Origin: Eledone cirrhosa | Lineage: Eukaryota | Length of the DNA stretch: 64,000 nt | Direction of reading: 5' to 3' | Assembly (NCBI GenBank): GCA_964016885.1 | Contig: OZ024748.1 | Location: 43,276,001-43,340,000, forward strand | In this document: positions 27,301 through 30,300 of the stretch, piece by piece | Numbering within the stretch: position 1 is the first letter of the stretch | How the letters are laid out: each line of letters starts with the position of its first letter | Position numbers and translations under genes: made by a program | Notes under the pieces: generated by a model | The model's database searches: none | What the model was told of the DNA's origin: nothing | The model's input: only the letters and a program-made list of their open reading frames with translations

Positions 27301-30300
27301 AAGTGGATTGTAGATTTGATTGGTTCACTAAGAGGGTCAACATTAGAGTACTTCTGGGTCATTAAACACATACTTATGGAGTTTGTCAAATTTCTGAATA
27401 AATCACAACACAGGCCAAACTTTATTGAAAATCTTTGGGGAAAAAAATATAACCCCAATTTAGTAGTCTTGTTGAATAAAATGACTTACCATTATCAATA
27501 GTCATTTTCATAAAGAGAATAAAAATCAGGTATTAATACAGTTTTTTGGCAACAACAAAAAAACGAGATTTCTTTTCTTGATGGGACTAGCAATAACTTG
27601 AAATAATTCCATAATAAATGGATAATTCATGAAAAATTAAAATGGATTTCTAAAGAAAAAATATGAAGATGAATTTTAATAGGAAAAAAGAAAGGCAAAG
27701 AAAATTGAAAAATTTATAAAATATTTTAAGTTACTAATTAAATAATATTTAGGGTGTGTGGGGGGGGCCTAGCTCTTTTGTTCTGCTACTTGTAAGTACA
27801 TCATATAATACACTACATGTACACACACACACATATATATATATATATATATATATATATATATATATATATATATATATATATATATATATTAGAAAGT
27901 GAGGTTTTTTTTACAAAATGAAAAATAACCGAGGTGTCCTACACGAGTGGAAGTATAAAGAAAAAGGGATGAAATCGAAAATGCAACTGAAGTCTTATTT
28001 TTTTTTAAATATATATATTTATTTGGTTCCTTTACCGGTTTCGCAGTTCTTCTGCTTTTCAAAAGGTGAGTTGAGATGGAGGGTCTGTGGTTTTTCTCAC
28101 AGATGTGAGAAAAACCACAGACCCTCCATCTCAACTCACCTTTTGAAAAGCAGAAGAACTGCGAAACCGGTAAAGGAACCAAATAAATATATATATTTTT
28201 AAAAAAATAAGACTTCAGTTGCATTTTCGATTTCATCCCTTTTTCTTTATATATATATATATATATATATATACACACACACCATTAACTGATACATAAA
28301 TCATGTATATTTAGCATTGAAATATGTAATTATTGAAATATGTAATAAGTGGTTCGAAATATGTCCGACATTTCCCATCTAGCTGTGGACTATAGCCAGC
28401 TTTGAGGTCCTTCATGTTACATCTAACCTGGGCCTACTACCACCTCTCATTATACACTATTCCTCTGACCATTCTTTCATTCATAAGAGGTTAAGTTTAA
28501 CCTGACTCTTTGCTATGTTCATTGTAGCAGCTGGTTGATTCACAGTTATTTCTGTGTTTCAGATTCTGGTAATTTGACGATAATTTTACACTCATATCTT
28601 CAAATCACTTCATATCATGTTCTTTACAGACACACACACACATATATATATCATCATTTTTACGTCCGCTTTTCCCTGCTTGCAAGGGTGGGACGGGAAC
28701 TGATTCTGGCTTGATTTCTACAGCTGGATGCCCTTCCTAACACCAACCTCATTTACAGTGAGTGCTTGGTGCTTTTTTGCCTTGGCACCTCCATGACCAC
28801 TTTGCAGTGGAATGATATCGACCCCAGTCCCTATCATCTCATTTCTACAGCTGAGTAAACTGGAGCAATGTGAAATAAAGTGTCTTGCTGAAGGAAACAA
28901 CACATCACCCGGTCTGAGAATTGAACTCACAACCTTTCGATTGTAAGGCCAATGCTCTAACCACTAAGCCATGTGCCTCCATATATATATATATATATTG
29001 TTGGTGGGGGGATTGGGGCTAATTTACCAGCATTGTACTAGCTTGATTGTTACAAATAGTGAAATATATTTTTCAAACTGTCTTTTGTAGCTGTAGCACT
29101 CTGTAAGAATATATATACTCTTTTGTTGTTTAGGAAAGTTGAGTAAAGAGTTTAACCATATTGAAATGACAGCAGTAAAAGTCATAGAGGATAAATATAT
29201 GGAATTATATCAGAGTTCTCTTCAGAAGTAATGAATATCATTATAACCCACAGAATCTCAGAAACTCACTATTTTAGGACCTCTGTAGGAAAAAACGGTC
29301 ATCTGCTATAGGTTATACAGTAGTAGATAGATTGACAAAGATGAAACAATTTCTCTTTTAAGTGTGACATTTAAAGAATAAACAACAATAATTTAAAAAA
29401 ACAACAACACAGTCAGAGAAACAATGGAATCAGGAATAACCAGGAATGTCCAAATCTATCAGGAATGGCCATATCTATATGGAATGGGCCAAATAAGATT
29501 CCATTATAAAGAAAAGGTTTCATAATTGTCAGTGAACAACACAGGAAGCAGAAAAGAAAGCAATGGAGGCAGCTTCTATAAATTTCTACAGAAACAACCA
29601 TGAAACGTAGATGAATTTAAAGACAAACTGTACATTGTGTTTCTATAATTAAACATGTGAAATAATATTACTGTAGACAGGAGCAGGGAAGAAAGAGTTA
29701 AACAGTGTGATCTGTGATATTTGGCAGAGACACTCTGAAAAGTGATGTGACAAAGTCGGAATATTAGCCATTGAAAACAATGTTATAAACCATTGTAAAA
29801 GGTTTCTTTTTTCTTTGTCCAATATCACAATTTAGAGTAATATACTAAAGAATCTGAAATAGATCCATTATCTATTAATAAGATCTCTCAGAACAGAATC
29901 TGACGACAGTCAGACAATAGTAATAGCAGAAATTATATGTGATGTACAGAATTATTATAAAGATATTTATCAAAGTGAATTATAATAAAGAGGTACACTT
30001 ACTCTGTCAATCTCTGTGGGATTATTGCAAAGATTTAACCATATCAACTTCACATGAACCATTCCACTCTCAATATCTCGCAGAGGAAGCCACTAGAGAA
30101 AAGAAAAATTCATTTTAAAAATACAATTTAACAATTTTACCAAAGATTTAACTTGGGAGAGTCATGTTGCCAACCAAAACACATGAACATGTTAGGTTTT
30201 CACTTCAATTTATTATTATAATTTCCCATTTGGTTAGTTTAATAACTGGATGCATGTGTTTTTATTGGCAGCATGACCATCCCTAAATATAACAATAGCT

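Follow-up and report, generated by a model that had tools for sequence, protein, structure and literature searches.

Minimal type I hammerhead ribozymes with a short helix I, a palindromic helix III and a requirement for dimerization have been described for metazoan Penelope-like elements (PLEs) (Cervera and de la Pena 2014, PMC4209133). The accessible text of that study reports a U3-A8 variant of the core in PLEs of Schistosoma (about 1,300 matches in S. mansoni, with a UUGAAAA core in S. mansoni(4)) and Cercyon, as well as opposite-strand pairs of motifs spaced 100-700 bp apart and a low activity of the dimer. Natural U3-A8 hammerheads and their activity in vitro were documented earlier (Perreault 2011, PMC3088659). 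In the accessible parts of Craig et al. 2021 (PMC8557442), EN+ PLEs are described as canonically single-ORF elements, and the Neptune clade has a reverse transcriptase (RT) followed by a C-terminal GIY-YIG endonuclease, with DKG and CCHH motifs and a CX2-5CxxC linker at a Neptune-length spacing to the GIY. The same source describes (TA)n targets, partial tandems, inverted 5'-truncated copies and one-sided tails as part of PLE anatomy. For Poseidon of the green anole, a member of the Penelope/Poseidon clade without the Zn-finger linker, the hammerhead was reported to lie in the pLTR, to need protein for cleavage and to leave uncut RNA as the main template (Frangieh et al. 2024, PMC11167929, in the portions available). 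Non-LTR retrozymes, which derive from PLEs, are non-coding and carry type I hammerheads; they form head-to-tail tandem arrays according to the accessible text (bioRxiv 10.64898/2026.07.22.740005).

The locus examined here lies in a 64-kb stretch of Eledone cirrhosa DNA (hereafter the window) and was found to resemble each of these systems in part. Its motif has the type I architecture, palindromic helix III and U3-A8 core of the PLE hammerheads, and shares a 4-nt palindromic insert and a GUA cut triplet with the shrimp motif of PMC4209133. By contrast to the motifs presented in that text, it is without an extra base between A9 and G10.1, has a shorter stem II (4 bp) and belongs to a set of about 15,000 near-identical U3-A8 motifs in another host rather than to a heterogeneous set. 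The parent element has the Neptune traits listed above, with a tail of 63 nt compared to the 30-40 nt described, a 1-kb 3' UTR with microsatellites and, unlike the single-ORF elements, a separate 400-aa ORF1 in -1 overlap. With Poseidon it has in common a tail that spans two internal RT starts, AT-rich target sites, a hammerhead in the pLTR and, probably, a template that is mainly uncut RNA; Poseidon differs in its C3-G8 core, in a hammerhead that overlaps the ORF start and in its clade. Like the non-LTR retrozymes, the window feature is a non-coding PLE derivative with type I hammerheads, but it is a head-to-head, one-off insertion. Since it is a mirrored end fragment of an abundant element and the U3-A8 swap is already published, the feature is an ordinary product of PLE integration, that is, transposon debris. 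No paper on the hammerhead of this Neptune-type family was found in the literature open to search, subscription papers and Repbase lying outside its scope.

The palindrome at this locus was found to consist of a 148-bp inverted repeat (27954-28101 and 28104-28251) with arms that are 99% complementary and differ at 2 of 148 positions, both in a T/A run. It is flanked by two (TA)n runs read from the sequence, a left run at 27833-27892 that represents the target microsatellite and a right run at 28248-28273. The left arm (27954-28101, minus strand) is an inverted copy of the 3' pLTR segment of the parent and continues into a 63-nt tail (27891-27953, minus strand) that matches L104:4353-4290, the parent stretch that separates the short 3' end from the ORF1 start; together, 27891-28101 is 98.6% identical to L104:9041-8831. 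The right arm (28104-28251, plus strand) is a direct, 5'-truncated copy of the same segment with (TA)n at its end, and 28100-28251 is 99.3% identical to L104:8827-8978. In terms of the parent, the right arm starts about 70 nt ahead of the cut site and reaches the short 3' end; the left arm is its inverse with the tail added towards ORF1, and the tail is found on the left arm only. The arms meet at an inversion junction (28100-28105) with a 2-nt microhomology, CA-GA-TG, and at both outer ends the element breaks off in TA-rich sequence that is microhomologous to the (TA)n target. At 22718-22995 lies an inverted insertion from the same family that is older and arose independently; it is 72% identical to the palindrome at 28 kb and has a 26-nt deletion in its right arm. 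As the preliminary description had claimed, it retains TTGAAAA in both arms (22903-22909, plus strand; 22848-22842, minus strand), with stem III decayed in each.

A fold scan of the 64-kb window, in which positions 3, 7 and 8 were left free and a 3-8 pair was required, returned exactly two hammerhead folds, one per strand (28143-28172, plus; 28062-28033, minus), in agreement with the minimal fold that had been proposed for both strands. Each comprises a 4-bp stem I, a 4-bp stem II, a U3-A8 core, GAAA, the palindromic ACCGGT and UA, and represents a minimal type I core with a Watson-Crick 3-8 pair, helices I and II and a palindromic helix III. The motif sequence quoted earlier is present exactly as given at 28139-28176 on the plus strand and mirrored at 28029-28066 on the minus strand (U3 at 28062, predicted cut after 28033). 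The plus-strand motif, which was also analysed by folding, is composed of stem I (28139-28142 and 28173-28176), the core UUGAAAA (28143-28149, with U3 at 28143 and A8 at 28148), stem II (28150-28162), GAAA, the palindromic stem III (28166-28171) and A17 (28172). The Rfam hammerhead model gave 0 matches in the 64-kb window at its gathering score. Two copies of the parent motif cofold at -20.3 kcal/mol by an intermolecular ACCGGU duplex. In line with the dimer suggested from the palindromic stem III, helix III can, by folding, form only between two copies, but a dimer from one transcript is impossible here as the two motifs lie on opposite strands. The whole window element folds as a single hairpin of -247.5 kcal/mol. 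Because of this hairpin and the opposite orientation of the motifs, both ribozymes are predicted to be buried in read-through RNA of the locus, which should not cleave, and the ribozymes at this locus are likely silenced.

In longer copies of the element, a GIY-YIG end was detected approximately 1 kb upstream of the hammerhead motif. A search with this end yielded 10,392 candidates, and 16 of the 150 scored lie in a 775-codon frame with DKG, RT motifs, a C-x4-C-x2-C linker and, at the C-terminus, a GIY-YIG with CCHH. By eye, the linker (of the CX2-5CxxC type) and its long spacing fit the Neptune rows of the alignment in the accessible part of PMC8557442, unlike the Nematis or Penelope rows. 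ORF1 (400 aa) followed by the RT-EN frame at -1 was present in L098, L099, L101, L104 and L107, so these copies are not single-ORF; in L104, ORF1 (4380-5582), which is helical and without a Pfam match, overlaps the RT-EN frame (5492-7819). Among 20 regions fetched, L098, L101 and L104 had both ORFs between direct hammerheads 4,679-4,712 nt apart, in direct repeats of 0.2-2.1 kb that derive from partial tandems carrying the hammerhead, as in a pLTR. An open frame ending at the TGA of the hammerhead was considered as the ORF of the element and rejected, the RT-EN frame stopping approximately 1 kb upstream. The RT with DKG, the C-terminal GIY-YIG and the inverted 5'-truncated copy with a one-sided tail are those of EN+ PLEs, and the motifs suggest that the parent, a young retrotransposon, is of Neptune type. 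Close RT-EN homologs (P0018, P0044, P0048 and P0064) are filed under bacterial gill symbionts and are probably host DNA in those assemblies.

The state of positions 3 and 8 was examined with a 24-nt pattern, positions 7 and 8 free, run over the 3.0-Gb genome of the species. The pattern was matched 15,542 times compared to 0 for the reversed control, and 15,294 of the matches (98.4%) were U3-A8. Thus, the claim that U3-A8 is the family state rather than decay is upheld and, by its distribution among copies, U3-A8 is ancestral in this family; the warning that searches restricted to CUGANGA would miss the family is likewise correct. C3 was detected in 75 matches (74 with A8, 1 with G8) and G8 in 40, 39 of them besides the C3-G8 double, which was observed once against about 0.2 expected under independent mutation. 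A C3-G8 subfamily of this PLE family was not found, a looser C3-G8 pattern giving 5 matches, of which 2 were old family copies. The alignment of genome-wide copies that had been proposed as a check on pairing consequently demonstrates conservation but not covariation within the family, since genomic copies repeat the master sequence and cannot show the latter. The 120 distinct arms included a subfamily nearest the window copy (86 arms, mean identity 96.6%, stem I of 4 bp) and a more distant one (17 arms, 92.3% identity, stem I of about 3 bp).

Related elements were surveyed in 75 metagenome loci taken from the best 80 of 458 matches. Hammerheads were found in 25 of these loci (36 in total: 18 C3-G8, 13 U3-A8, 5 U3-G8 and 0 C3-A8) and in none of the reversed controls for the 75 loci. 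When collapsed by eye to distinct motifs, the counts were 13 C-G, 10 U-A, 1 U-G and 0 C-A (Fisher p 5.6e-6, a value that overstates the association because 8 of the 10 distinct U-A motifs are from one assembly). A quickly built RT tree (66 rows, no named reference) shows C-G and U-A alternating among sister families. This switching between C3-G8 and U3-A8 in related elements supports a working 3-8 pair, at the level of sequence comparison. U3-A8 had been presented as a rare natural variant; it is natural and already published for PLEs, but common among relatives (13 of 36 motifs). One assembly (L230-L253) contains many sister PLE families in which C3-G8, U3-A8 and U3-G8 hammerheads alternate; a G GGU UU(U/C) heptamer, located upstream of the RT frame, is common to these families. 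A second, smaller family (L031-L059, at about 1500-1540 in each) combines a minimal hammerhead of the canonical C3-G8 type with the ACCGGT palindrome and with (TA)n ends, and accounts for most of a set of 101 pattern matches; it was considered as kin of the Neptune-type element and set aside, with no convincing link to the proteins of the element. Repeats at L177:1495-1712 and in L178 (minus strand), 76% identical, have a CTGAAGA core and a similar start of stem II, with a long loop, a displaced stem I and no similarity to the proteins or UTR of the Neptune-type element.

The inversion junction of the window was matched 339 times in the genome, and 30 of these loci were surveyed together with the window (31 loci). 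The 19 fully scorable right arms represented 5 haplotypes, and the two arms agreed within the locus in 26 of 27 scorable cases. A tail on one arm with a (TA)n end on the other was observed in 22 of the 31 loci, 9 being not scorable on one or both sides; 11 loci had the tail on the left and 18 had it on the right, with 2 unscored, and it was never seen on both arms. Among the first 100 of the 15,542 matches, 26 minus/plus neighbour pairs were identified by eye with a spacing of 24-5,669 nt, the window's being 83 nt. An independent public run from one study, which may be the source sample, likewise contains joints between opposite strands at this parent position (4139-4144 to 8829-8831). The 5 haplotypes, the agreement of arms and the variable tail side fit repeated fold-back at the CA-GA-TG microhomology and not one master palindrome, and the recurrent junction points to a fold-back hot spot, as read from these sequences. 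Palindromic junctions have been interpreted as self-priming in the accessible text of PMC3846280.

By parent identity and the junction survey, the "palindromic element" with ribozymes on both strands of the preliminary description is instead an inverted, 5'-truncated PLE insertion. A self-amplifying, non-autonomous palindromic unit, whether MITE-like or retrozyme-like, in which hammerheads on two strands process both polarities, would fit with one exact junction being found 339 times and shared by the older window copy. It is difficult to reconcile with a junction carried on 5 parent haplotypes with matching arms and with a tail that changes side and a spacing that ranges over 24-5,669 nt, where a MITE would have a fixed palindrome; nor were head-to-tail arrays of the short unit, as in non-LTR retrozymes, seen in the 30 junction loci examined, the arms being head-to-head, and the hairpin would bury both motifs. 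That reading is largely refuted and in our estimation very improbable. The region is rich in microsatellites, as might be expected of an assembly artefact or a chance palindrome in low-complexity DNA; set against this are the 15,542 matches with 0 in the control and, with the same caveat as to sample, the joints in the public run, which leave that explanation a negligible likelihood. We consider it highly probable that what was inserted here in (TA)n is an inverted and 5'-truncated piece from the end of a Neptune-type element, with a predicted U3-A8 hammerhead in each arm that is likely silenced by the hairpin.

For such an inverted end fragment, the integration route that we infer would begin with nicking of (TA)n by the GIY-YIG endonuclease of the parent. 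The RT would then prime at two internal RNA sites, of which the one 79 nt beyond the hammerhead cut would yield the short end and the one at about 142 nt the tailed end; two internal RT starts, as in the accessible account of Poseidon (PMC11167929), could account for the tail. After synthesis had aborted some 70 nt upstream of the cut, a head-to-head joint between the two products would form via the CA/TG microhomology. In parent RNA the hammerhead would probably be slow, and its cleavage would depend either on dimerization (ACCGGU with ACCGGU) or on assistance by the protein of the element; it may serve to trim tandem or read-through transcripts, with most templates copied uncut.

Copies that retain ORF1 (36 rows from 50 loci, or 30 distinct after removal of 6 duplicates) were compared for their position relative to the cut. 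An intact 5' hammerhead was present upstream in 19 of the 30, 11 began 10-302 nt downstream of the cut, and none started at the cut or within 9 nt of it. Apparent 5' boundaries, counted with patterns that differ in stringency and are confounded by A/T microhomology, numbered 26 at -16, 14 at -6, 85 at -2, 66 at -1, 105 at 0, 37 at +1, 67 at +2 and 55 at +4 with a stricter pattern, and 19 of the first 100 boundaries at 0 were one-base deletions. The excess of 5' ends at the cut site is at most weak, involves less than 1% of copies and forms no clear pile-up, in agreement with the uncut-template picture of the anole element.

Mostly uncut templates speak against a major role of the hammerhead in making the template, and the short stem I (4 bp; about 3 bp in the older subfamily) counts against a working ribozyme. 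A rival reading, with the same origin of the palindrome, is that the hammerhead is catalytically dead or dispensable and that U3-A8 is left over from A/T drift, a passenger in the 3' UTR. This would be consistent with the uncut templates, with the lack of covariation within the family (74 C3-A8 and 39 other G8 to 1 C3-G8, ~0.2 expected), with the mere 5 matches of the looser C3-G8 pattern and with anole ribozyme mutants that inserted unimpaired in vitro, as given in the accessible text of PMC11167929. By contrast, the rest of the core is preserved along with stems I-II and the palindrome, the older subfamily included; positions 3 and 8 change together across related families, although these kin are not independent; stem I is better in the youngest subfamily; and U3-A8 hammerheads are reported as active in vitro in the accessible part of PMC3088659. 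On balance, we regard a dead or dispensable hammerhead as rather unlikely.

The two frames of the parent were also examined for the manner in which they are joined. Counted from its ATG, ORF1 is 400 aa long; it shares about 90 nt with the RT-EN frame, which is set at -1 and has its first ATG at codon 163, beyond DKG. Within the overlap, U UUU UUA is in phase with ORF1 and is followed 7 nt later by a modest stem-loop; the site was unchanged in 51 of 51 matches among the fetched loci (some of which overlap). Phe-Leu-Asp/Glu is kept in 5 of 5 ORF1 homologs that reach the C-terminus, the tail being otherwise variable. The same heptamer was found in phase in 5 of the 6 closest testable relatives, 4 of these without Met in the open stretch, while another clade has G GGU UU(U/C) in 14 of 16; overall, an in-phase heptamer was present in 28 of 50 testable loci. 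These patterns make it likely that ribosomal -1 frameshifting at U UUU UUA links ORF1 to the RT frame. The overlap could alternatively be read with TTTTTTAG as a splice acceptor, and no joint across the ORF1/ORF2 overlap was present among the rows listed for contigs of two public runs; or the RT-EN frame could start at a GUG, where homologs have been called with Met. ORF1 has no Pfam family, and its Atlas look-alikes (gag/PNMA at 0.85 or below) are a lead only; its predicted model (pLDDT 55.7) has long helices and no fold match at E 0.001. A frameshifted ORF1 may be known already for these elements, as the Fig. 1 legend in the accessible text of PMC8557442 mentions an ORF1 separable by a frameshift with a pseudoknot, the clade being unnamed in that text; no further published account of such a frameshift was found in the literature open to search. 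Our tentative proposal is that the parent may represent an undescribed gag-pol-like EN+ branch, in which programmed -1 frameshifting at a U UUU UUA site conserved across distant hosts would fuse a helical, possibly gag-like ORF1 to RT-GIY-YIG, and the U3-A8 hammerhead would be protein-assisted.

Other features were noted in the window. Dispersed repeats (21642-21766 with 28862-28986 and 24610-24709 with 31370-31469, 77% pairs; three copies of a 57-nt repeat in 30519-30857) are probably short interspersed elements. A 166-codon frame of ordinary composition (23133-23633, plus strand) may be the decayed remnant of a DNA transposon. Long stretches of extreme GC skew (+0.7 to +0.8 and -0.5 to -0.85, over 32001-42000, 4001-10000 and 16001-18000) are probably satellite arrays.

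For the role of the hammerhead in PLEs, this family is a convenient test case as it provides intact, near-identical parents, about 15,000 copies of the motif in one genome and a natural U3-A8 core. Descriptors restricted to CUGANGA undercount PLE ribozymes, 13 of 36 relative motifs being U3-A8. Should the frameshift be borne out and prove new for EN+ elements, their annotation and in vitro expression would change. If the gag-pol-like reading is true, the parent would be young and intact enough for direct tests of how Neptune-type elements transpose and target (TA)n and of what the ribozyme does.
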